Sequence record: PZ049719.1
DNA length: 11,386 bases
From: a phage
Direction: 5' to 3' (one strand)
Both the position numbers and the translations under genes were made by a program. Below are positions 1,242 to 11,386 of this stretch, in pieces (position 1 is the first letter of the stretch; each line of letters starts with the position of its first letter). The notes under the pieces were generated by a model. That model saw nothing but the letters and a program-made list of their open reading frames with translations, was not told the origin of the DNA and searched no databases.

Positions 1242-1272
1242 CCACGGAATACTTGCGGTTGCGTCGCTACAG

Positions 1273-1288
1273 ATTACGAGATCGTCAT
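1273..1288. promoter_or_regulatory. Second related box ATTACGAGATCGTCAT (ATTAC-N6-GTCAT) upstream of the porin gene
   Basis: Same half-site spacing as the 1226..1241 box, with one mismatch in the right arm; 112 bp upstream of the porin ATG. Confidence 0.3.
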
Positions 1289-1399
1289 TTGCCGCTAATC
1301 CTGCGGTCATTTGTAGGGGGAGATCATGGCCAGGCGCTAAAACAAAAAGGCAAGAGACGTCATTCGAACGCTGACATGCCGTATATCAGGAGCATCATC

Positions 1400-2722
1400 A
1401 TGAGCAAAAAGGCCGCCCTTTCACTGACAGCTCTTTCATTGGCACTGGGCGGCGCCTCGGTCTTTGCCCAGTCGGAAACAGCAGCGGAGGGCTTCATCGA
1501 AGGCAGCACGCTATCGCTGATCAATCGCAACTTTTATTTCAATCGAGATTTCCGCGACGGTGAGAACGCAACCGGCAATGGCTACTCTGAGGAATGGGCT
1601 CAAGGGCTGATGGCCTTCTTCGAGTCCGGATATACCCAAGGCTCGGTGGGGATCGGCGTCGACGCCTTCGCCATGCTCGGCCTCAAGCTCGATTCTGGAT
1701 CAGGACGTTCCGGTGCTGGCGGAACCGTCGATCTTCTCCCCTACAATAGCGCCGGCGATGCCGAGGATGACTTTTCTCGAGTAGGGGGGGCCGTGAAAGC
1801 ACGGTTCTTGGGCACCGAGATCAAGGCAGGCGATGTATTTCCCGCTACTCCTGTCGTGCACTTTGGTGACGCACGGCTGCTGCCGGAGTCTTTCAAGGGT
1901 GTCACCGTTGTGAACAACTCGCTGGACGACCTCACCCTCCAGGGCGGCCGCCTGCACGCGATGAGCCAGCCCAATACCAGCAACACGAACGATGACTTCG
2001 TCACGTTTTATGGCGGCGGCGTCGACTCGCCTTGGCTCGGCTACGCAGGCGGCGACTATAGCGTGAACGAAAACCTCAGTCTTAGCCTGTATACCAGCCG
2101 GCTGAAGGATGCCTGGGATCAACATTATTTCGGTGTCTCGGCCACCTATCCACTTTCCGATGCCGTCGTGCTGCTGGGCAGCTTCAACTACTACAAGGCA
2201 ACCGACGAAGGTCGGAAATTGCTGGGCGAGTTTAACAACAGCATCTGGAGTTCCAGTCTGGGTGTCGCCTTCGGCGCGCACACCGTCACGGCGTCGTATC
2301 AGCGAAACAACGGTAACAACGACTTTGACTACTTGCGCCAAGCGGACTCGATCTACCTGAATAACTCCATCCAGTACAGTGATTTCAACTCACCTAAAGA
2401 GCAGTCCTGGATGCTGCGTTATGACCTGAACATGGCGGGTTACGGCATACCTGGGCTTACGTTCATGACTCGCTACGCCCGCGGCTGGGGCGCCGATTAC
2501 AGCAACGCAAATGAGGTATATATGCGCCAAGACGATAACGGCGCGCCTCTGTCCGGACAGAAGCGCTGGGAACGCGACGTCGAAGCACGCTACGTTGTAC
2601 AGACAGGCTCGTTCAAGGACCTCTCTCTGCGGGTGCGCCAGGCTACAACACGGGCGACTGCTTTCGAGTCCGACCTCAATGAGGTTCGATTCATCGCCGA
2701 GTACCCGCTCTCGATCCTGTGA
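1400..2722 (+). CDS. OprD-family (Occ) outer membrane porin
   Basis: The ORF track extends to a TTG at 1253, but the likely start is the ATG at 1400, preceded by AGGAG at 1388..1392. Product begins MSKKAALSLTALSLALGGASVFA (signal peptide) then EGFIEGSTLSLINRNFYFNRDFRDG..., the characteristic N-terminal signature of OprD/Occ porins. Length about 440 aa fits the family. Confidence 0.85.
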   Translation: MSKKAALSLTALSLALGGASVFAQSETAAEGFIEGSTLSLINRNFYFNRDFRDGENATGNGYSEEWAQGLMAFFESGYTQGSVGIGVDAFAMLGLKLDSGSGRSGAGGTVDLLPYNSAGDAEDDFSRVGGAVKARFLGTEIKAGDVFPATPVVHFGDARLLPESFKGVTVVNNSLDDLTLQGGRLHAMSQPNTSNTNDDFVTFYGGGVDSPWLGYAGGDYSVNENLSLSLYTSRLKDAWDQHYFGVSATYPLSDAVVLLGSFNYYKATDEGRKLLGEFNNSIWSSSLGVAFGAHTVTASYQRNNGNNDFDYLRQADSIYLNNSIQYSDFNSPKEQSWMLRYDLNMAGYGIPGLTFMTRYARGWGADYSNANEVYMRQDDNGAPLSGQKRWERDVEARYVVQTGSFKDLSLRVRQATTRATAFESDLNEVRFIAEYPLSIL

Positions 2723-2781
2723 AGCACTACGAGCAACACCACATCTTCTTTTTGTGCTCCCTTGGTTTGAAGATGTGTTTC

Positions 2782-2807
2782 AGGCGCCCGTAGGGCGCCT
2801 TTTTTTG
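2782..2807 (+). terminator. Rho-independent terminator downstream of the porin gene
   Basis: AGGCGCCC-GTAG-GGGCGCCT forms a perfect 8-bp GC-rich stem with a 4-nt loop, immediately followed by a run of seven T, about 60 bp after the porin stop. Confidence 0.75.
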
Positions 2808-2853
2808 CTTAAGTGCACCTCCTTGCGCTGCGGGCCAACCAAATGACAGGTAG

Positions 2854-2869
2854 ATTACAAATTTGCAAG
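2854..2869. promoter_or_regulatory. Related box ATTACAAATTTGCAAG upstream of the response-regulator gene; candidate autoregulatory operator
   Basis: Left half-site ATTAC and the AAATTTG core match the 1226 box; the right half-site is degenerate (GCAAG versus GTAAT). Sits between the porin terminator and the regulator start. Confidence 0.3.
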
Positions 2870-3038
2870 ACAGCCCCGCAGGACTTTTACCGCGTTAAAG
2901 TGCTTCCCGCTTCCCTAGGCTGATCTTTACGGCCAGCCTTCCATGCTGGGCAAGCCGCGTTAGTCTTGGCCTAGTTGCTACATGAATAATTTTTTGGTTC
3001 CGCTTACCGCGCACCTCATTGCTGAGTCATCTGAAAAC

Positions 3039-3713
3039 ATGCGCATTCTGGTTGTAGAAGACGAGATTAAAGCTGCGGAATACCTGCAGCAGGGTCTCAT
3101 CGAGTGTGGTTACACGGTCGATTGCGTAAGTGATGGGCTCGATGGATTCCACCTGGCACTGCAGAACGACTATGACATCGTGCTGCTAGACGTGAATCTG
3201 CCAACCATGGACGGGTGGGAGGTGCTCGAACTCATCAGGCGACGTAAGCAGACACGCGTCATCATGCTGACGGCCAATGGCCGCTTAGAGCAAAAGGTCC
3301 GCGGCCTGGAGTCGGGCGCCGACGACTATATGGTCAAGCCGTTCCAGTTCCCCGAGCTGCTCGCTCGTATCCGAACATTGTTGCGGCGAGGCGAGGCGGT
3401 CGCACTCCCGAGCAACCTGCGTGTAGCCGACCTCGAACTCGACCCGGGCCGGCATCGGGCCTACAGGAGCGGTCAGCGTATTGATCTCACCAGCAAAGAA
3501 TTTGCGTTACTGCATCTGCTCATGCGCCGGACTGGCGAGGTTCTGACGCGCACCGAAATAACCGCCCTGGTGTGGGACATCAACTTCGACTGCGATACCA
3601 ATGTGGTGGATGTTGCAATCCGTCGCCTACGGATGAAGGTGGACGAACCCTTTGGCGATCGCCTGATACACACCATTCGCGGTGTCGGCTACGTGCTGGA
3701 GGCGCGGCCTTGA
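3039..3713 (+). CDS. czcR: OmpR/PhoB-family two-component response regulator, heavy-metal type (CzcR/CopR/CusR-like)
   Basis: Translation MRILVVEDEIKAAEYLQQGLIECGYTVDCVSDGLDGFHLALQNDYDIVLLDVNLPTMDGWEVLELIRRRK... contains the receiver domain with the phospho-acceptor Asp in LLDVNLP, followed by a winged-helix output domain (...IRGVGYVLEARP). The ORF track begins at ATG 2982; I prefer ATG 3039 because this family typically starts MRILVVEDE, though neither start has a strong Shine-Dalgarno. The czcR symbol is by context (czcC-like OMF, porin, overlapping kinase). Confidence 0.8.
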   Translation: MRILVVEDEIKAAEYLQQGLIECGYTVDCVSDGLDGFHLALQNDYDIVLLDVNLPTMDGWEVLELIRRRKQTRVIMLTANGRLEQKVRGLESGADDYMVKPFQFPELLARIRTLLRRGEAVALPSNLRVADLELDPGRHRAYRSGQRIDLTSKEFALLHLLMRRTGEVLTRTEITALVWDINFDCDTNVVDVAIRRLRMKVDEPFGDRLIHTIRGVGYVLEARP

Positions 3714-5083
3714 AGCCACTCAGCCTCGCATCGCGTCTCGCGCTTCAAATCACATTGACCGGCGCCGTCTTGGTCGCGCTGTTGATTGCACTGAGCTACT
3801 GGGTACTTGTGCGCCAACTGGAACTGCGCGCCCAGGAGGAAGTGACGGCCAAGCTCTCGCAGATCGATCATGGACTCCTAGAAGACACCAAAGCCCGTAT
3901 GGGCCGCTCCTGGCAACACGCACTGAGCGATACGGTACTCGGCCATGACAACCTTTCGATTACCGTCATCGGCGATAGAGCCAAATCCCCCATTTTTAGT
4001 ATCGGCCGGTTCGCCCATGCGCCGCAGCAGATGGATCTTGTGAACAGAGACGGTGAATACCTAGGCTGGACCACGGAAGACGGCGTGCAGATGCTAACCG
4101 GGCGCAAGCAAATACAGGTCCCGGGACTGGCTCCAATGACGCTTTTACTTACGCAAGATCGCAGTGCCGATCAACTGCTAGTGGCTGCATTCCTGCGCTC
4201 GGCCTTAGTGACTGTGCCGATGCTGCTGATGTTGATCGGGTTGGCTGGATGGCTAGTTGCTAACAACGGTTTGCGACCGCTTCGCAAGTTTCGGGCCTTG
4301 GCGACAAAGGTATCGACGCAGGATCTGTCACCCCGAATCCGCAGCGATCAGCTTCCACTAGAGCTTCAGGAATTGGCGCACAGCCTCAACGTAATGCTTC
4401 ATCGACTCGATGACGGAGTTCAGCAACTGTCACAATTCTCGGACGATGTGGCCCATGAGTTGAAGACTCCCCTAAATAACCTGATAGGCAAGGCGCAGGT
4501 GACATTGGTGCGTGAGCGAAGCAAGGAGCAATATAGGGAAGTGCTCGAATCGTCGGTCGAAGAGCTCGAACGCATGGATCGAATCGTGTCAGACATGCTG
4601 TTTCTCGCCCAGGCCAGCCACGCCAGCCCAGCACTGAAACTCGAACAACTATCCCTGGGAAGTGAGGCGAATCGCGTCTGTGAATACCTCGAAGTCCTCG
4701 CCGAAGAAGCCGGAGTCGCAACGACGGTAACGGGCGATGCCATAGTTCTAGGAAATCGGCTTATGGTCCAACGGGCCATTTCCAACCTGCTATCCAACGC
4801 GTTGCGGCATTCGAATACTGGCAGCACGGTCGAAATTAAGATACTTGAGAAGGACATAGACATCGTCTCGCTGGCTGTCACCAATCATGGCGCGACTATC
4901 GAATCGGATCATCTCCCGCACCTGTTCGACCGCTTTTACCGCGTTAACGGCATACAACCTCGTGGGGCAGGATTGGGGCTAGCTATTGTCCGTTCAGTGA
5001 TGAACCTCCACAAAGGCCACGTGGCCGTCGCCAGCAAAGACGGTCGGACCACATTCGAACTCACCTTTCCTCGGCACGCCTGA
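3710..5083 (+). CDS. czcS: Heavy-metal sensor histidine kinase (CzcS/CusS/CopS-like)
   Basis: Two predicted transmembrane segments flank a periplasmic region. H-box FSDDVAHELKTPLNNL with the His codon at 4454..4456; N-box LLSNALRHS; DRFYRV; G-box GAGLGLAIVRSVMNLHKGHV. The only plausible start is TTG 3710..3712, overlapping the regulator stop (TGA 3711..3713) and preceded by GGAGG at 3698..3702; the first in-frame ATG lies far downstream and would delete the first transmembrane segment. Confidence 0.8.
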   Translation: MKPLSLASRLALQITLTGAVLVALLIALSYWVLVRQLELRAQEEVTAKLSQIDHGLLEDTKARMGRSWQHALSDTVLGHDNLSITVIGDRAKSPIFSIGRFAHAPQQMDLVNRDGEYLGWTTEDGVQMLTGRKQIQVPGLAPMTLLLTQDRSADQLLVAAFLRSALVTVPMLLMLIGLAGWLVANNGLRPLRKFRALATKVSTQDLSPRIRSDQLPLELQELAHSLNVMLHRLDDGVQQLSQFSDDVAHELKTPLNNLIGKAQVTLVRERSKEQYREVLESSVEELERMDRIVSDMLFLAQASHASPALKLEQLSLGSEANRVCEYLEVLAEEAGVATTVTGDAIVLGNRLMVQRAISNLLSNALRHSNTGSTVEIKILEKDIDIVSLAVTNHGATIESDHLPHLFDRFYRVNGIQPRGAGLGLAIVRSVMNLHKGHVAVASKDGRTTFELTFPRHA

Positions 5084-5317: not shown

Positions 5318-5635
5318 ATGAACCGCCCTGCTAAAGTAATCCTGCCGTTCTTTCTGGCCGCTGCTTCTTCGCTCGCTATGGCTGAAGACGGAGGGGAACT
5401 AACAATGCAGCGCCTTGAGAGTGCGTCAGTAACAAATCCCACCCTTAAAATACTTGTTAAAGAAGGTAAAGTGCTGAGCATAGCACCTGCAGGGACGACC
5501 GGTACGACCGGAATGATTCAGAGTTATAGAACTAACGGCAAAGTTCAAACGTACGAGATGAAGGTTAAGACCCCTGATGGGAAGATCCATACGGTTGAGT
5601 TTTTGAGCGCCCCGGTTGGTATAAACAACGGCTAA
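5318..5635 (+). CDS. Small secreted/periplasmic protein of unknown function (105 aa, signal peptide plus beta-rich mature domain)
   Basis: ATG 5318 preceded by AGAGGG. N-terminus MNRPAKVILPFFLAAASSLAMA is a typical Sec signal peptide with an A-x-A cleavage site. The mature part (...GKVQTYEMKVKTPDGKIHTVEFLSAPVG) is Thr/Gly/Lys-rich, looks beta-stranded and has no Cys/His metal motif. It sits in a visibly A+T-rich segment between the kinase and the MerR gene. Family not recognised; PepSY-like or DUF2790-like are only guesses. Confidence 0.6.
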   Translation: MNRPAKVILPFFLAAASSLAMAEDGGELTMQRLESASVTNPTLKILVKEGKVLSIAPAGTTGTTGMIQSYRTNGKVQTYEMKVKTPDGKIHTVEFLSAPVGINNG

Positions 5636-6064
5636 CAGGCCAGTAAGCCCCAACGCCATTAATTTAATGCACGCGTCCTCGCTAATGCCAGCGAGAATTC
5701 CACAAGCCTCAACTTCCCGCCCATCACTGCAATTAGCCCGCAGTGATACGAGTTGTCGTTCGAGTGACTGCAGAGCGGTTATCTGCGACTTGACTTGAGA
5801 AATGTGTTCATCGAGCAAGGCATTAACGGCCGTACAAGGCTGGCGAGGGTCATCCTGGTAGCGTTGGAGTGCGTGAATCTCTGGAAGTGACAGATTCAGG
5901 ATTCGGCAGCTCCGGATGAAGGCTAGCCGCTCGCCATGCTTCTCGGTGTAGACACGATAGCCGTTCGCCTGGCGATCAGGCGGTGGCAGCAAGCCCTGCT
6001 GCTCATAGAAGCGGATCGTCTGTGTATCAATCCCTATTAGCCTTGCTAATTGACCAATGCGCAT
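5426..6064 (-). CDS. MerR-family metal-responsive transcriptional regulator (CadR/ZntR/PbrR-like) with an aberrant 3' extension
   Basis: N-terminus MRIGQLARLIGIDTQTIRFYEQQGLLPPPDRQANGYRVYT is the MerR helix-turn-helix; a dimerisation helix follows, with Cys at residues 77, 112 and 121 in the pattern of the CadR/PbrR/ZntR metal site. The ORF has no stop until 5426, giving 212 aa against roughly 135-150 aa typical of this group. The last 65-80 codons lie antisense to the small-protein gene and look non-native (...FTFFNKYFKGGICY). The coordinates are those of the open frame; the true functional 3' end is uncertain. Confidence 0.7.
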   Translation of the reverse strand: MRIGQLARLIGIDTQTIRFYEQQGLLPPPDRQANGYRVYTEKHGERLAFIRSCRILNLSLPEIHALQRYQDDPRQPCTAVNALLDEHISQVKSQITALQSLERQLVSLRANCSDGREVEACGILAGISEDACIKLMALGLTGLLAVVYTNRGAQKLNRMDLPIRGLNLHLVRLNFAVSSITLNHSGRTGRPCRCYAQHFTFFNKYFKGGICY

Positions 6065-6092: not shown

Positions 6093-6123
6093 TTGACCTT
6101 GTAGTAGCTATAGGGCTTTTAAT
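6093..6123 (+). promoter_or_regulatory. MerR-type promoter/operator: -35 TTGACC, 19-bp spacer with imperfect dyad, -10 TTTAAT
   Basis: TTGACC (6093..6098), then the 19-bp spacer TTGTAGTAGCTATAGGGCT, then TTTAAT (6118..6123). An overlong 19-20 bp spacer carrying a dyad is the hallmark of MerR-family activated promoters, and the arms ACCTTGTAG / CTATAGGGC resemble CadR/PbrR-type operators as I recall them. It lies in the divergent region between the MerR gene (start 6064) and the transporter gene (start 6157). Confidence 0.7.
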
Positions 6124-6156
6124 GACCCCATCTTCGATTTCAAGTGGAGCCGTATC

Positions 6157-7047
6157 ATGAGCAAGTCCGATGGTCCCTGCGGCTGCGATGCGACACCAGC
6201 CGCCGATGCCGGTGTGCAAAATCATTCCGATACGACGGGGCAATGGGTCAGTGTTTACGCCGTGCCCAAGATGGATTGTCCATCAGAAGAGCGAATGATC
6301 CGCTTGGCGCTGAATAGTTTGGACGGAATTCGGAAACTGACTTTTGATTTATCGGACCGTCGATTAGACGTCATGCATGACGGGGCCGTTGAGCCCATAA
6401 CTACAAAGCTGGCGGCGTTAGGGCTAGGCGCCACACTTCAGAAAACCGTCACTGCAGACCCGGAGATGATTAAAGCCGTCGAGAATTCGGCGGAATCTAC
6501 ACAGGAGTCCCGTTCCCTACGTTTACTGTTAGGCATCAACGCCTTCATGTTCGTGGTAGAGATGACTGCTGGTCTGGTCGCCAGGTCCGCGGGTCTGATT
6601 GCCGACTCGCTCGACATGTTCGCTGACGCGGCAGTGTACGGCCTAGCCCTTTATGCGGTGGGGCGTAGCGTCAGCCTGCAGGTGCGTGCTGCACACCTTG
6701 CTGGTGTGCTCCAGCTGATTTTGGCTCTCGGCGTGCTCGTAGAGGTATTTAGACGCTTTGTATTCGGCAGCGAGCCCGAGTCGCTGATAATGATGGCCGT
6801 CGCATTCCTGGCATTGCTCGCCAACATGGGTTGTTTGCTGCTGATTTCCAAACACAGGGAAGGCGGGGCCCACATGAAAGCGAGCTGGATATTTTCCGCC
6901 AATGATGTGGTCATCAACGTGGGCGTCATAGTCGCCGGAGCGCTCGTCGCTTGGAGTGGATCCAACTACCCAGACCTGATTATCGGTACTGTTGTGGGAT
7001 TCATCGTTCTCAACGGCGCTCGGCGTATTCTGGCGCTCAAGAGCTGA
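6157..7047 (+). CDS. CDF-like cation efflux membrane protein with N-terminal metal-binding domain; likely target of the adjacent MerR-family regulator
   Basis: ATG 6157 with GGAG 7 nt upstream. The N-terminal ~100 aa are soluble and carry a CGC motif (DGPCGCDATP) and an HMA-like loop VPKMDCPSEERMIRL. Six hydrophobic segments follow, including a CDF-like acidic motif in TM2 (IADSLDMFADAAVYG). The protein ends right after TM6, so it lacks the usual cytoplasmic C-terminal CDF domain. Confidence 0.75.
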   Translation: MSKSDGPCGCDATPAADAGVQNHSDTTGQWVSVYAVPKMDCPSEERMIRLALNSLDGIRKLTFDLSDRRLDVMHDGAVEPITTKLAALGLGATLQKTVTADPEMIKAVENSAESTQESRSLRLLLGINAFMFVVEMTAGLVARSAGLIADSLDMFADAAVYGLALYAVGRSVSLQVRAAHLAGVLQLILALGVLVEVFRRFVFGSEPESLIMMAVAFLALLANMGCLLLISKHREGGAHMKASWIFSANDVVINVGVIVAGALVAWSGSNYPDLIIGTVVGFIVLNGARRILALKS

Positions 7048-7133: not shown

Positions 7134-7766
7134 TTAGCCATTAACGGATGGTGGGTATTGCAGAACGTGGGCTGCAAAGTCCATCAGCGAGACGAAGCCG
7201 CACTGATCGGCTTTTCCTTCACGCTGTAGGTGGTAGCCACGCATGCCTTGCCCAATTGGACCAAGCATATCGGCTTGCAACGTGTCACCGATCATTGCGA
7301 TGGCGGAGGCTTCGCAGCCAAGCTGTTCGATCATCTGACGATAGATTGCAGGCTCAGGCTTTATTGCCCCAACCTCAAAGCTCCATCCGTAAACATCGAA
7401 CGACGGCAGTAACAGTTTGGCTGGAATCGCATATGGGGCTGCGAGATTGGAGCACAACGCGAGCTTCAGGCCGGCGTTCTTTAGCTGATTTAGCGACTCC
7501 AACGCATCATCGAAAAGGCGAACGCTGGCCAGCTCGGTGAAAAGGTCGCTTTCAAGGCTAGCTAACTCAGAGTTGCTCAACTGCGCACCGAAATAATCGG
7601 CAGCTCCAGCCAAACCCAGATTTCGAGTCATCAGAGTCCGTGCGTCATCCGGCCTTGGTGTTCTGCCCTGAAGCCGCAGGTGCTGCATCAGTTGGCGGAA
7701 AGGATGGCGACGCTCATCTATCTGGAGAAGCGTGCCAAACACATCGAAAACTACTGCTTGTATCAT
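7134..7766 (-). CDS. HAD-superfamily hydrolase, haloacid dehalogenase-like subfamily
   Basis: N-terminus MIQAVVFDVFGTLL carries HAD motif I with the nucleophilic Asp but Phe in place of the second Asp, the pattern seen in L-2-haloacid dehalogenase-type members rather than phosphatases. Later motifs (LALCSN, MIGDTLQADM) fit the fold. It lies 55 bp downstream of the SRAP gene on the same strand. Confidence 0.7.
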   Translation of the reverse strand: MIQAVVFDVFGTLLQIDERRHPFRQLMQHLRLQGRTPRPDDARTLMTRNLGLAGAADYFGAQLSNSELASLESDLFTELASVRLFDDALESLNQLKNAGLKLALCSNLAAPYAIPAKLLLPSFDVYGWSFEVGAIKPEPAIYRQMIEQLGCEASAIAMIGDTLQADMLGPIGQGMRGYHLQREGKADQCGFVSLMDFAAHVLQYPPSVNG

Positions 7767-7821
7767 GCCAGTACCACTACCGTTGGAGGCGAACCGACCA
7801 CCCGAAGAGCGATGCCGCCCC

Positions 7822-8478
7822 TCAGTTTTCTGAACTGGATTTCTTCAGAGGTGGCACGAAGAAGATGCGTCTTTGCGGGGGCGCTATCAGGATATCTGTC
7901 GACTTGATGCTTGTGCCTTTTCGACGCCTTGTTTTGCCGTTCTTGTCGACCGCCAGCAGATCACCGGTCGCGACAGCAATGTCGAGTGCCTGCTTTACGC
8001 GAAGCTCGTCAGCCATGGTGTAGTTGGTCAATCCGCTCATCAGACCCAAAAAAGGTTGCCGTTCTACCTCCCATAGGCCCGCTATCCCTAGCAGCCGCCC
8101 ATCGGCACGGGAAATTCGAGTAGGAATAGCCTTGCCTGTTCGCCAGTCGGGCTCATAGATCGCCACCGCAGGGATGATGCAGTGCTGTGCCTTCTTCCAT
8201 GCCTCCCTGAATGACCGCTTGACCGAGGCCGTCTCAGAACGGGCGTTGTAGGTGGACCGTGCCAGCTTTTTGTCGGCCCAGAAGGGCAGGAGCCCAAACA
8301 CTCCCACCTCAGCTTCAAATGGCAACACGGCGTCATCGTACGGGTCGACATTGCGAGGCTTGCGCAGGAACGGCCCGGCATAACCTGGCCACAATTCGAG
8401 CTTCTCCTGAGCGTCGAACTCGACACCAAACTCTTCTTGGAGACGCTCTGGGGTAGGGGCTTCGTAACGACTGCACAT
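7822..8478 (-). CDS. SOS response-associated peptidase (SRAP / YedK / DUF159 family; abasic-site processing protein)
   Basis: Start reassigned to the minus-strand ATG at 8478 (ORF track: 8526) so that the protein begins MCSRYE, placing the family's catalytic Cys at position 2. A GAGAGGTG Shine-Dalgarno lies just upstream. Further family-like motifs are YNARSETA and SFREAWKKAQHCIIPA. Confidence 0.75.
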   Translation of the reverse strand: MCSRYEAPTPERLQEEFGVEFDAQEKLELWPGYAGPFLRKPRNVDPYDDAVLPFEAEVGVFGLLPFWADKKLARSTYNARSETASVKRSFREAWKKAQHCIIPAVAIYEPDWRTGKAIPTRISRADGRLLGIAGLWEVERQPFLGLMSGLTNYTMADELRVKQALDIAVATGDLLAVDKNGKTRRRKGTSIKSTDILIAPPQRRIFFVPPLKKSSSEN

Positions 8479-8628
8479 AACACACCTCTCATTCGTCACT
8501 GTGCTGCTCGGTGTTGCGGCCCGCAACGCCTTGGCGAGTGGGATCTATGATTAGGACAATCTCTCGCGGCACCCCGCTTACTGAGTACATCCTTATACTG
8601 AACGCCTGCCTCCGACGATGGTGAATGC

Positions 8629-9585
8629 ATGTCGATAGATCAGCCCCTCCCTTTCTGGCGCAGAGCAGGAACATTTCTATGGGACTCAGTGCGTGAGGAC
8701 TGTGGGTATCCTGCAACGCTCATGAAGCTGATTAAGAGCCCAGTCAAACTTAATTCGCCCATCCAGGAAACAGCAAAAGGTATTGGCGCAGGAGCGGTTG
8801 TTAGGTGGCACGACTTCGGATCTCTTATTTATGAGCGCGGGATATATCGCGACAAGCTGAATGGATGGACCCACTGCCGCACCTATGGTCGGTATGGCTC
8901 GACTAGCATCGAATGCGCCCCACTATTGCGCGTTGGCAGCGAGATGCAGATCCAACGGTGGCGGTGCGATATCCAACAGGTAGATGGCTTCTCCGCGTCG
9001 AAATCCGAACTCAAGGAGTTCGCCACCATGGATGACATGGTGGTAAGGAACTCACCCGAGATGATCGACGAGATATCTCCGGCGAAGCTGGCGAAGAATC
9101 TGGCCTGGGATGAAATTCGGATCATCAGCCACGTCGATCACGATTATTTCGCCACTTGGGCTTGGGACGGACGCGTCTTTCTGATGAACTCCGGCGGTTC
9201 GCATCACTTCGCAGCTGCCAAGTACATCGCGGCGCGGCTTGAACAGCCGGTTGAGCTGACCGGAACCTATAAGATCTACGGGTTATGTGAGCAGGCTATA
9301 ACAGAACTCAGGCGTGAATACGGCATGTTCGTGTTGTCGCATGAGCCTGATGCTTGGTTGGGGTTCAACGAAGCTATGGCTCGCTTCAAGGCAACGTATT
9401 ATTGGAAGACATTGCCCCGCCCGCACAACCACCAGCGTTGCGCAATTTTTTTACCGCTAAAGGAGAAGCGCTCTGCCATGGTTGCGAGGATTCTCAAGGA
9501 AAACAATTTCCAGGACCTAGGCGCTTACTTGGCTGGCCTAGCTGCCCAGTCACAAGCGGTCATCAACAAAGTCAATCCGCCATAA
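8629..9585 (+). CDS. Hypothetical protein, 318 aa, no family assignable by inspection
   Basis: Long open frame with non-repetitive composition, divergent from the SRAP gene and convergent with the relaxase-like ORF. Contains a His/Asp-rich stretch (IISHVDHDYFATWAWDGRVFLMNSGGSHHF) that could be a metal or catalytic site. The start is uncertain: ATG 8629 has a weak GGTGA upstream, and an alternative ATG lies at 8722. Located in the more A+T-rich islet. Confidence 0.55.
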   Translation: MSIDQPLPFWRRAGTFLWDSVREDCGYPATLMKLIKSPVKLNSPIQETAKGIGAGAVVRWHDFGSLIYERGIYRDKLNGWTHCRTYGRYGSTSIECAPLLRVGSEMQIQRWRCDIQQVDGFSASKSELKEFATMDDMVVRNSPEMIDEISPAKLAKNLAWDEIRIISHVDHDYFATWAWDGRVFLMNSGGSHHFAAAKYIAARLEQPVELTGTYKIYGLCEQAITELRREYGMFVLSHEPDAWLGFNEAMARFKATYYWKTLPRPHNHQRCAIFLPLKEKRSAMVARILKENNFQDLGAYLAGLAAQSQAVINKVNPP

Positions 9586-9625: not shown

Positions 9626-10870
9626 CTAGTGATCATCCTGACTCTCACAAAGTTTGAGATTGGGATTATCCAGCATCTCAGTTGTGAATACGTCGCCGGG
9701 TTTTTTGAGCATATAACCCTTCAGTGTTTTCGTTTTACGAGGTCCAAAGACTTCGCACGTCCAGATGTTATGTCCGTTGCTCTTCTTAACGTGAAGCTTC
9801 AGCTTTTCGAACGACTTTTGGACCTGCAGCCATGGCTGTCCTTCGCCAGCCCTCGCTGAGAAGAGGGTCGGATGCTCTTGGGCATACCTTCTGAATATTT
9901 CAGGAGTCACCAGAAAAGCCGTGCCGTTGACGGTGTGAACCTTGGCTTTTGCATCATTGATAATGATCTTGTGGGTTCCTACACCCACTTTTAGCCAGTG
10001 CATGAAAAGGTGACCTAGCGTGTCGCCGATCGGGCCAGCGATGGTAGCGGTCGCGGCAGTGTCTGACTGAGCTTCGACCTCGGACGCCGCCGGCATCGCC
10101 GGGGCGGGTACCGAATTGGTCGGCGCGTCACGCATATCCATCAGATCCAGAAGGTAGTCCGTATCATCTACCTCATCGGGTTGCGGTCCATGGTCACTTG
10201 CGGGTTCGTCCCCTTGAGGCTCTGCCGCAACGGCATCGCCGCCCCCGGCAGTAAGGCTGGGCTTTTCCTCCTGCGCTTCGGAAGCTGCGGCAGGGGCTGC
10301 TTCTTCGTTGAGGACTTGCACCGAGCCGCCAAAAGGCTCCGGGCGGTCTTCGCCAGCTGCCCATATGAGTGAAGGTGAAACTCTCAAGAACGTGAATGCG
10401 TTCTTCCATCCCGTAGGGCTCAGGATTTCGGCATCCCAAATAGCTTTGCCAGCAGGATTCGCAACAATCAGGCCGTTATCCTGAAAGACATTGAAGAGAG
10501 TGGAGTTGCGGTCCGGAACACCCTCAATCCCTTGGCTGAGGAGGTGAGCACGCAGCCGATCCGAAACGGTCTTGCTGACCAGCCAGATCGCATCGGCCGT
10601 GATCCAGCCATCGGAAGCGTCTGGCTGATTCAACTTGAGCTCGTTCTTCACCAGGTAGCGCAGCCCATCGAGGAGCTGACGCTGAAGAGTGTTACGCGGT
10701 GCTGCCACAGCTCTGTCTGGATTGCCGCCAAGCTCATGGGCGACCGACGCCTGGTCAGACCTTACAACGATGTCCCCAAGAACCCCAGCGTGCTCAAACT
10801 GGCCAGCCAGTACGTACAGCAAAGCACCCCAGAGCTCTGGATTGGATGAGATCCATCCGATACCATTCAA
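9626..10870 (-). CDS. Hypothetical protein with a long acidic Ala/Pro-rich linker; possibly a 5'-truncated remnant of an ICE-type relaxase (TraI_2_C-like C-terminal region)
   Basis: The frame opens with TTG directly after an in-frame stop at 10871..10873, and the first internal ATG is about 245 codons in, so an intact N-terminus is doubtful. The upstream sequence in the same frame translates to non-protein-like text. A low-complexity segment (about 10000..10300) separates an N-terminal region from a basic C-terminal domain (...WTCEVFGPRKTKTLKGYMLKKPGDVF...). The resemblance to conjugative relaxase C-termini is a recollection, not a search result. Confidence 0.4.
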   Translation of the reverse strand: MNGIGWISSNPELWGALLYVLAGQFEHAGVLGDIVVRSDQASVAHELGGNPDRAVAAPRNTLQRQLLDGLRYLVKNELKLNQPDASDGWITADAIWLVSKTVSDRLRAHLLSQGIEGVPDRNSTLFNVFQDNGLIVANPAGKAIWDAEILSPTGWKNAFTFLRVSPSLIWAAGEDRPEPFGGSVQVLNEEAAPAAASEAQEEKPSLTAGGGDAVAAEPQGDEPASDHGPQPDEVDDTDYLLDLMDMRDAPTNSVPAPAMPAASEVEAQSDTAATATIAGPIGDTLGHLFMHWLKVGVGTHKIIINDAKAKVHTVNGTAFLVTPEIFRRYAQEHPTLFSARAGEGQPWLQVQKSFEKLKLHVKKSNGHNIWTCEVFGPRKTKTLKGYMLKKPGDVFTTEMLDNPNLKLCESQDDH

Positions 10871-11042
10871 TCAATGTACCCATAGAACGCATACGCGGAA
10901 TTCGTGTGTGCGTTGATTCGTGAGCGGCAGAGAGAGGGCATTCATTGGTGAAGCAGCGCTGCGGGGTTTAAGAGTGCTCAGCGAGCCTGCTCGAAGAGCC
11001 GGCGCCGTGCTGAAGCACGTGAACCGAAACGCCGCTCTGGCC

Positions 11043-11101
11043 CGGTAGCTGCCAGTCGTCACCGGCGGCAATCGGCCAAATGCTGCCTCCGGCAGCTACC
11101 G
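11043..11101. repeat. Perfect 11-bp inverted repeat (CGGTAGCTGCC / GGCAGCTACCG) separated by a 37-nt spacer
   Basis: Arms at 11043..11053 and 11091..11101 are exact reverse complements. It sits between the EamA gene stop (11134) and the relaxase-like ORF start (10870), at the edge of the lower-GC islet. No T/U run follows on either strand, so it is not a canonical intrinsic terminator. Confidence 0.5.
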
Positions 11102-11133
11102 ACCAAAGCCTCCACAGAATTCCATCCAAATAC

Positions 11134-11386
11134 TCATTGGCGCCTAGCCCACGGGGCAAACAGGGCGCGCAGCAGGCGGGATAAGAACTTGGGTACATCA
11201 ATCTCGGCGATCAGCAGAGCTGAAAAGATGAGAGCTGCACCGGCCAGGGTTCTTCCATCCAAGGTTTCGCCAAGGAGCATCGCTCCCGCGAATGCTGCGA
11301 AGATGGGCTCGAACAGGTAGGTCAGGGCTACTTTTTCTTCTTCGAGATACTTCTGCGCAGCACTCTGAACCGCGTACATGAAGGCT
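11134..11386 (-). CDS. EamA/DMT-family transporter, C-terminal part only; N-terminus beyond the window end
   Basis: The minus-strand frame is open from the window end to the stop at 11134..11136. Translation ...LTYLFEPIFAAFAGAMLLGETLDGRTLAGAALIFSALLIAEI... is the characteristic last transmembrane region of EamA/DMT proteins. The Met at 11379 used by the ORF track is internal. Confidence 0.65.
   Translation of the reverse strand, partial: AFMYAVQSAAQKYLEEEKVALTYLFEPIFAAFAGAMLLGETLDGRTLAGAALIFSALLIAEIDVPKFLSRLLRALFAPWARRQ

Follow-up and report, generated by a model that had tools for sequence, protein, structure and literature searches.

We analyzed an 11,386-nt stretch of phage DNA (record PZ049719.1, one strand; referred to here as the window), in which a gene for a cation diffusion facilitator (CDF)-family membrane transporter is read divergently from cadR, a gene for a MerR-family regulator. 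The pair was interpreted as a two-gene metal-resistance divergon of cadR and a CDF-family exporter, to which we assign a probability of roughly 80%. Most likely, it serves to export Cd(II)/Zn(II)/Pb(II) upon activation by CadR. The transporter carries a heavy-metal-associated (HMA) domain ahead of its transmembrane (TM) helices, and the locus has the following features:

5426–5662, minus strand: read-through tail of cadR, 78 codons, gained by stop loss and overlapping a PtrA-like open reading frame (ORF) on the other strand
5663–6064, minus strand: conserved 134-codon part of cadR, encoding a MerR-family Cd(II)/Pb(II)-responsive regulator (TIGR02047, Pfam)
6093–6098, plus strand: −35 hexamer TTGACC, read from the sequence; TTGAC(C/A/T) is kept in related loci
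6096–6116, within and overlapping the 19-bp spacer: putative CadR operator, the dyad ACCTTGTAG-TAG-CTATAGGGC
6099–6117, plus strand: promoter spacer of 19 bp, read from the sequence
6118–6123, plus strand: −10 hexamer TTTAAT, read from the sequence; T(T/A)(A/T)AAT is kept in related loci
6146–6149, plus strand: ribosome-binding site (RBS) GGAG, 7 nt 5′ of the ATG at 6157, read from the sequence
6157–7047 (stop included), plus strand: coding sequence of the HMA-CDF transporter, 296 amino acids (aa) (ORF, Pfam)
6178–6186, plus strand: N-terminal Cys-Gly-Cys, residues 8–10, read from the sequence
6244–6453, plus strand: HMA-fold (ferredoxin-like) cytoplasmic domain, residues 30–99 (Pfam, profile, AlphaFold2, Foldseek)
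6271–6291, plus strand: metal loop M39-D40-C41-P-S-E44-E45 within KMDCPSEE, residues 38–45
6490–7041, plus strand: six-helix CDF membrane domain, residues 112–295 (Pfam, Foldseek)
6604–6627, plus strand: D150, D153, and D157 of TM2
6892–6918, plus strand: F246, N249, D250, and N254 of TM5

The intergenic region measures 92 bp from the cadR start (6064) to the transporter ATG and shows the hallmarks of a MerR-type promoter: a spacer within the range of 19–20 bp, a dyad in the spacer, and an adjacent, divergent MerR-family gene. The first-pass annotation had described this geometry (TTGACC, a 19-bp dyad spacer, and TTTAAT), and it was recovered once in the window, at 6093–6123. A single instance of the pattern TTGAC-N20-TWWAAT was found in the 11.4-kb window, where shuffled sequences gave an expectation of 0.01; the dyad ACCTTGTAG-TAG-CTATAGGGC was likewise found once, with 0.00 expected. 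The dyad was present as described, though it is imperfect, with Watson–Crick complementarity at six of nine positions; a terminator scan flagged it as an eight-pair stem when G–T pairs were counted. A generic sigma-70 scan did not list the transporter promoter because it considered spacers of 16–18 bp, which is the outcome expected for a MerR-type promoter with a 19-bp spacer. An Rfam scan found no RNA family within the window.

The promoter was compared across related loci, for which one genome was taken per species; at least 584 loci with a relative of the transporter were obtained, and 80 were kept. The arrangement TTGAC(C/A/T)-19 bp-T(T/A)(A/T)AAT was found in approximately 73 of the 80, and the distance from the −10 hexamer to the start codon was 34 nt in most of them. 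The operator arms were conserved across these loci, and the central 3 bp were free to vary (TAG, CTA, CGA, TGG, TGA, and CCT). Conserved arms around a variable center are characteristic of an operator to which a protein binds. The block TTCAAGTGGAG(C/T)CGTATCATG around the RBS was common to the window, pWW0, and a related locus designated L001.

The whole cadR ORF runs from 6064 to 5426 (212 aa), divergently from the transporter gene. The adjacent MerR gene noticed in the first-pass annotation proved to be of the CadR type: residues 1–127 matched the NCBIfam CadR-PbrR equivalog TIGR02047 with 192.8 bits (cut-off of 151.45), and the scores against the MerR, ZntR, and CueR models were well below their cut-offs. 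Pfam matches to MerR_1, MerR-DNA-bind, and MerR were also obtained. Cys77, Cys112, and Cys121, which we take to be the metal ligands of CadR/PbrR proteins, are all present.

The window cadR is 96% identical to the gene for the 134-aa CadR of L001 and of a second related locus, L002, and its ORF exceeds the normal length of CadR/PbrR proteins (about 130–150 aa). The length of 212 aa is explained by the loss of the stop codon at 5660–5662, where the window has TTA and L001/L002 have TGA, a single-base difference in the alignment with L001. In 66 of 67 related loci, the CadR ORF was 127–144 aa long, and the other was a 19-aa pseudogene. The search of Pfam and NCBIfam returned no family match for the 78-aa tail. 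The same cadR allele and promoter were found in five independent Stutzerimonas-type assemblies, with 0–3 mismatches over 1,622 bp; the allele is therefore a fixed feature of the lineage, and an error in sequencing does not explain it.

The PtrA-like ORF on the opposite strand (5318–5635, plus; 105 aa) matched the PtrA N-terminal domain NF041599 over its first 43 residues (47 bits), and its 3′ part is antisense to the cadR read-through tail. Gene callers choose either this ORF or the 212-aa MerR ORF, depending on the assembly. Similarity of the window to L001 sets in at the stop codon of the PtrA-like ORF, near 5625.

The first-pass annotation had read the transporter as an HMA-like fold followed by six TM segments with a CDF-like acidic motif and no cytoplasmic C-terminal domain, and it had proposed domain searches and structure prediction as checks; both bore the description out. 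Pfam placed Cation_efflux (PF01545) on residues 123–292 with 54.1 bits (cut-off of 26.6) and HMA (PF00403) on residues 33–79 with 25.5 bits (cut-off of 24.8). The AlphaFold2 model, for which 57 diverse relatives were used, reached a mean predicted local distance difference test (pLDDT) score of 88.4 and a predicted TM-score (pTM) of 0.75. It consists of a leader (residues 1–29), an HMA-fold domain (30–99), a short linker helix, and six long helices (112–295), of which the individual TM helices span residues 112–142, 145–167, 172–203, 209–231, 238–267, and 271–295. As the chain stops at residue 296, one past TM6, there is no cytoplasmic C-terminal domain, and the metallochaperone-like domain that serves dimerization and regulation in CDF proteins is missing.

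In the Foldseek search against the PDB, the membrane domain superposed on YiiP (8f6h and 8f6k) with a root-mean-square deviation of 2.3–2.4 Å over 180–198 columns, and further matches were obtained to ZnT1/3/7/8 and SLC30A10. A search of PDB chains with the single transporter sequence gave no match; the family profile retrieved ZnT8 (E = 5e-13) and the HMA repeats of ATP7A/B (E = 1e-15). Compared with the pWW0 homolog, the membrane domain showed 76 synonymous and 30 non-synonymous codon differences, and the N-terminal 110 codons showed 29 and 34, respectively. The excess of synonymous changes in the membrane domain indicates that the transporter core is under strong purifying selection.

The Cys-Gly-Cys motif that had been pointed out earlier does occur at residues 8–10, but it is not a property of the family, being found in only approximately 10 of 70 representatives. 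This motif or a similar one opens many relatives that consist of the membrane domain only (~200 aa). The leader holding C8-G-C10 had a pLDDT of ~50 in the model, and it is probably flexible.

The N-terminal domain was modeled as a beta-alpha-beta-beta-alpha-beta fold (strands 30–35, 58–64, 69–74, and 93–99; helices 42–52 and 79–87) with a pLDDT of 88–97, and Foldseek matched it to CCS, to MerP, and to the domain of plant HMA4 that binds Zn (2kkh), which the family profile retrieved as well. Its loop, KMDCPSEE, departs from the two-cysteine GMxCxxC loop in having one Cys, with Glu instead of the second. A comparable loop, CCxxE, is known from HMA2 and HMA4, the Zn/Cd pumps of plants. The presence of Glu at this position points to Zn, Cd, or Pb, and not Cu(I), as the ion coordinated by Asp, Cys, and Glu.

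The loop and domain layout had been regarded as atypical in the first-pass annotation, and this did not hold. The motif M-D-C-x-x-E-E is conserved in the 57 relatives and is therefore the defining loop of the family, not a local oddity. It is also found in P1B-type ATPases, which carry multiple N-terminal MDCxxEE copies of the HMA domain (NMDCRNEE and NMDCPTEE in the protein P0269), and a search with the window HMA domain alone retrieved genes annotated as "heavy metal translocating P-type ATPase" on hundreds of plasmids. As MDCxxEE domains also occur on CadR-linked ATPases, the window CDF protein bears the standard N-terminal equipment of CadR-regulon transporters. A literature search with CPTEE and MDCPSEE-type motif strings found nothing relevant.

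Across the 57 relatives, which are 36–93% identical to the window protein, D40, C41, E44, N128, D153, D157, V160, N223, D250, N254, P272, and D273 were invariant, and the nearly invariant positions included M39, R49, R68, E135, D150, Q186, H239, and F246. The acidic motif noted in the first reading thus corresponds to D153-x3-D157 and D250. In the profile alignment with ZnT8, D153/D157 fell on the H-x3-D motif of TM2 and F246/D250 fell on that of TM5. Position 246 is Phe or Cys across the family. With F246 at a canonical ligand position, site A is left with three carboxylates; N249 and N254 are near D250 in the sequence.

The pairing of a MerR-family regulator with a CDF transporter had also been considered unusual, and the comparative data contradict this. 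A divergent cadR homolog was located ~96 bp upstream of the transporter gene in 67 of the 80 loci, in addition to the promoter conservation described above. Such regulation was predicted in 2006 (PMC1526738) and has been shown experimentally (bioRxiv 2020.10.20.348086, PMC11580412). The pairing is frequent and not universal, as illustrated by the relative P0386, for which no MerR gene was found within 3 kb upstream and none at all within ~0.8 kb; at one of its four places, a mer-operon MerR lies ~1.7 kb downstream.

The family is large. A word-indexed search returned more than 5,238 relatives, and an exhaustive search returned 3,635 clusters (50% identity), of which 187 had E < 1e-30. Among plasmid records, 768 had a match and 393 had a near full-length copy. 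In a relative from the betaproteobacteria, which shares 54% identity with the A. johnsonii homolog that served as the query, MerR, HMA-CDF, and lspA genes lie together; the same arrangement was found on Acinetobacter plasmids, among which there are versions with two or three HMA domains. A protein identical to the window transporter over its 296 aa is already catalogued (ABP81044.1 and others) on at least 1,000 contigs, and UniRef lists it for ten Stutzerimonas taxa. It is named "cation transporter", "sodium:proton antiporter", or "cation transport ATPase" in the databases, and the latter two names do not fit its domains. In S. stutzeri B1SMN1, the identical gene (P0003, corresponding to 6295–7047 of the window) is annotated from Met47 as a 250-aa protein; this start is almost certainly mis-called, and a protein beginning there is without the leader as well as the invariant MDCPSEE loop.

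One of the closest known systems is found on pWW0. Permina et al. reported in 2006 that cadR of pWW0 and of pKLH202 is paired divergently with a CDF gene and not with CadA, predicted a CadR site upstream of these CDF genes, and proposed cadmium as the cargo (PMC1526738). The element ISPpu12 has been described as bearing a "czcD" gene (PMC3735179), and a four-gene cluster of the ISPpu12 type, cadR-CDF-lspA-tnpA, is duplicated in Acinetobacter AbaR1 (PMC1326220, PMC3735179). In pWW0, the ISPpu12 set comprises cadR, the cation transporter gene (also called czcD or cadA), lspA, and tnpA. Its transporter is 78% identical to the window protein over the full length and the cadR-CDF pair is homologous; both transporters combine a Cys-containing leader with an MDCPSEE HMA domain and six TM helices and lack a C-terminal domain, and the pWW0 promoter is of the same type (TTGACC-19bp-T(T/A)AAAT). 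The two differ in the leader (CGC in the window versus C-x3-C in pWW0) and in TM2 (DSLDM versus ESLDN). Unlike ISPpu12, the window has neither lspA nor an ISL3 transposase gene downstream; what follows is a gene for a HAD hydrolase, read in the opposite direction.

We also considered the window locus as a copy of ISPpu12 or of Tn6018, which we take to be the AbaR1 cluster; these elements have 24-bp inverted repeats. This was rejected because lspA and tnpA are missing and the similarity to pWW0 is confined to the two genes. What the window holds is a homologous cargo pair, cadR-CDF, rather than the element itself.

CdfX of C. metallidurans (Rmet_2299) is a CDF protein without a C-terminal domain that exports Zn and is encoded on a genomic island; it is induced by Zn and Cd via the MerR-type regulator ZntR (PMC11580412). 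It resembles the window protein in lacking the C-terminal domain and in having a MerR-type regulator, but its gene is not divergent from that regulator, as ZntR is encoded elsewhere. The published cdfX primers imply a protein starting with MAEKPQ and a gene of ~650 bp, from which CdfX would have ~215 aa and no HMA domain. The EEPVGP primer matched, with two mismatches, the orthologous position in a 211-aa "cation transporter" of pENH91 (C. necator), a protein 44% identical, without gaps, to the window membrane domain. The start-codon primer and one lacZ-fusion primer had no match on pENH91, and no family representative begins with MAEKPQ. Judging from this primer match, CdfX is probably a member of the same clade without the HMA domain.

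In A. baumannii, czcE (ABUW_2851) is divergent from cadR (ABUW_2852), as the CDF gene of the window is from its CadR-type MerR regulator. Cadmium induced czcE 480-fold in a CadR-dependent manner, and inactivation of czcE led to Cd hypersensitivity and 8-fold more cellular Cd (bioRxiv 2020.10.20.348086). Transcription of A1S_2929, an accessory CDF gene of an A. baumannii Cu island, was unchanged by Zn or Cu alone (PMC5346208). Another A. baumannii protein, P0297, is an HMA-CDF transporter of 434 aa with several HMA domains, and it probably fits the description of A1S_2929 rather than that of CzcE. At its chromosomal locus (L085, 4532–8396), a MerR gene lies beside it, and feoA and feoB follow directly and then copper-resistance genes, which puts ferrous-iron importer genes next to a heavy-metal exporter gene.

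On pENH91 (Cupriavidus necator), a P1B ATPase of the CadA/PbrA type is under the same kind of control as the window CDF gene, with a divergent regulator of the CadR/PbrR family, a 19-bp spacer (TTGACT-19 bp-TTCAAT), and a related dyad. Its N-terminus has a CGC leader followed by HMA domains with NMDCRNEE, NMDCPSEE, NMDCPTEE, and KMDCPTEE. It is an ATP-driven P-type pump with four HMA copies, in contrast to the CDF of the window with one, which is predicted to be proton-coupled. The surrounding pENH91 block (L083, 646–7132) contains the gene for the 211-aa membrane-only CDF protein, a sterol-desaturase-like gene, cadR, the gene for the four-HMA ATPase, a PAP2 phosphatase gene, and lspA, and it parallels the cadA-cadR...cdfX region of C. 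metallidurans CMGI-1. The canonical CDF proteins (YiiP/FieF, CzcD, ZitB, and ZnT/SLC30) share with the window protein the six-helix fold and the D-x3-D positions of TM2 and x-x3-D positions of TM5; the window protein differs from them in lacking a C-terminal domain, in the added N-terminal HMA domain, and in having Phe instead of His/Asp in TM5.

From these features, the following mechanism can be proposed. A CadR dimer would occupy the dyad inside the over-long 19-bp spacer and, without metal, the promoter would be held in a poor conformation. Binding of Cd(II), Pb(II), or Zn(II) at Cys77, Cys112, and Cys121 would under-twist the spacer and allow RNA polymerase to use the −35 and −10 hexamers. 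Such under-twisting is the established mechanism of the MerR family. The 296-aa inner-membrane CDF protein would carry these same divalent ions out of the cytoplasm and into the periplasm by proton antiport, with a transport site predicted to comprise D153 and D157 of TM2 and D250 of TM5, and possibly N249 or N254. The MDCPSEE loop, offering Asp, Cys, and Glu as ligands, probably captures or senses the metal on the cytoplasmic side, a task for which the N-terminal loops of this type in CadR-linked P-type ATPases are likewise positioned.

Several observations weigh against this interpretation. The score against the CDF model TIGR01297 was below the cut-off (67.9 versus 82.35), which is explained by the inclusion in that model of the C-terminal domain missing here. 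The domain that is missing is the one for dimerization. The TM5 position that is His/Asp in characterized CDF proteins is Phe246 here; the site therefore differs from that of every solved CDF structure, and neither the substrate nor the stoichiometry can be deduced by analogy. Compared with L001, the operator has two extra asymmetric substitutions, and the CadR of this Stutzerimonas lineage carries the 78-aa read-through tail; either could alter the regulation. In the accessible literature, we found no experimental data for the window protein or for relatives more than ~45% identical to it, and the literature search gave no P. stutzeri-specific data on the transporter gene.

The substrate is the point on which the first alternative differs. 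The module would be the same but would act mainly on Zn(II), as a CdfX-like back-up zinc exporter and not as a Cd/Pb pump, which we consider rather unlikely. The precedent is CdfX itself, which exports Zn without a C-terminal domain (PMC11580412) and, by primer match, is close to the 44%-identical pENH91 protein; against it stands CzcE of the sole CadR-CDF pair tested, which is Cd-specific (bioRxiv 2020.10.20.348086). The CadR of P. aeruginosa responds to Zn (PMC10393844), but the window regulator scores as a Cd/Pb equivalog and is far below the ZntR models. The neighbors of the gene, which encode an OprD-family porin, a two-component system of the CzcRS type, and a PtrA-like protein, look like a Zn/Cu-responsive cluster, whereas A1S_2929, to which P0297 probably corresponds, was unresponsive to Zn or Cu alone (PMC5346208). 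An all-oxygen Asp/Asp/Asp site with Asn and without His would have no obvious preference for Zn over Cd/Pb.

A second alternative, which appears improbable, is that the regulation has decayed in this lineage, so that the transporter is uninducible or constitutive and the MerR-type promoter is a relic. The extension of CadR to 212 aa by the TGA-to-TTA change, beyond the 127–144 aa of its 66 relatives, and a tail that is antisense to another ORF and has no domain match are what such decay might look like; however, the DNA-binding domain, the dimerization helix, and the three Cys residues of CadR are intact, the C-terminal tails of MerR-family proteins vary naturally in length (127–144 aa), and the allele is fixed and very widespread. 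The dyad is complementary at six of nine positions compared with eight of nine in L001, but operator variants such as TTGTAG and CAGGG are found in other loci, and the −35 hexamer, the spacer length, and the −10 hexamer are intact. The locus L079 (Pseudomonas sp. NPDC047963, upstream of 3002) has lost cadR yet keeps the transporter.

L079 is 94% identical to the window locus; its cadR is cut to a 19-codon ORF, and the transporter gene and promoter are kept. It is an example of regulator loss.

That the protein, instead of being an exporter, senses or chaperones metal while anchored in the membrane, or acts as an importer, is very improbable: the missing C-terminal domain, the replaced site-A ligand (F246), and the low TIGR01297 score would allow it, but the membrane domain superposes on YiiP at 2.3–2.4 Å and is under purifying selection, there is no variation at the three site-A aspartates or at many of the polar residues within the membrane, the relative CdfX mediates efflux although it also lacks a C-terminal domain (PMC11580412), and control by a metal-excess activator suits export, not import.

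The divergon of cadR and a CDF exporter, which remains our interpretation, is flanked by a czc-type cluster (OprD porin, two-component system, and PtrA-like ORF) and by remnants of an integrative element. At 1253–5083 on the plus strand, an OprD-family porin gene is followed by the gene for a heavy-metal response regulator (TIGR01387) and by that for a sensor kinase (TIGR01386). The ORF starts listed for the latter two (2982 and 3572, respectively) are probably too far upstream, as the proteins are called with 224 aa and 457 aa elsewhere. In related assemblies, a gene for an outer-membrane efflux protein precedes the porin and two-component genes. The set resembles the czc-type Zn/Cu-responsive cluster in which CzcR of P. 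stutzeri reportedly activates OprD.

On the 3′ side of the transporter gene (7134–9585), genes for a HAD-family hydrolase (minus strand), an SRAP/YedK-like protein (minus strand), and a DUF6685 protein (plus strand) were found. They accompany the transporter gene in close relatives, and in some assemblies insertion sequences break them up. At 9626–10870 on the minus strand, a MobH/TraI_2 relaxase ORF covers only profile positions 184–324 and the C-terminal domain, its N-terminal part being missing, and in the region just upstream of it (10871–11386), the C-terminal end of an EamA/DMT-like membrane protein is encoded instead. Other assemblies have an even shorter remnant of the relaxase (169–260 aa). 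This region is a decaying remnant of an integrative element.

For CDF specialists, the residual value of the locus lies in the substrate, the part played by the MDCxxEE domain, and the oligomeric state that goes with the missing C-terminal domain; in the accessible literature, no HMA-bearing member of the clade was found to have been characterized structurally or biochemically. We tentatively propose, as a possibility on the speculative side, that HMA-CDF proteins without the C-terminal domain form a mechanistically distinct class of CDF proteins. Their all-oxygen site (D153, D157, and D250 plus Asn, with a TM5 position without His/Asp) may be adapted to large ions of soft or borderline character, for example Cd(II) and Pb(II), and the MDCxxEE HMA domain may take over sensing and dimerization from the absent C-terminal domain. 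The inconsistent public annotations of the protein, in both its names and its start codon, could be corrected.

The feature is a known, widely disseminated CadR-CDF metal-resistance module. It occurs very frequently on plasmids, insertion sequences, and integrative elements; clinical Klebsiella, Enterobacter, and Acinetobacter plasmids are among its carriers, and there it may contribute to metal co-selection.

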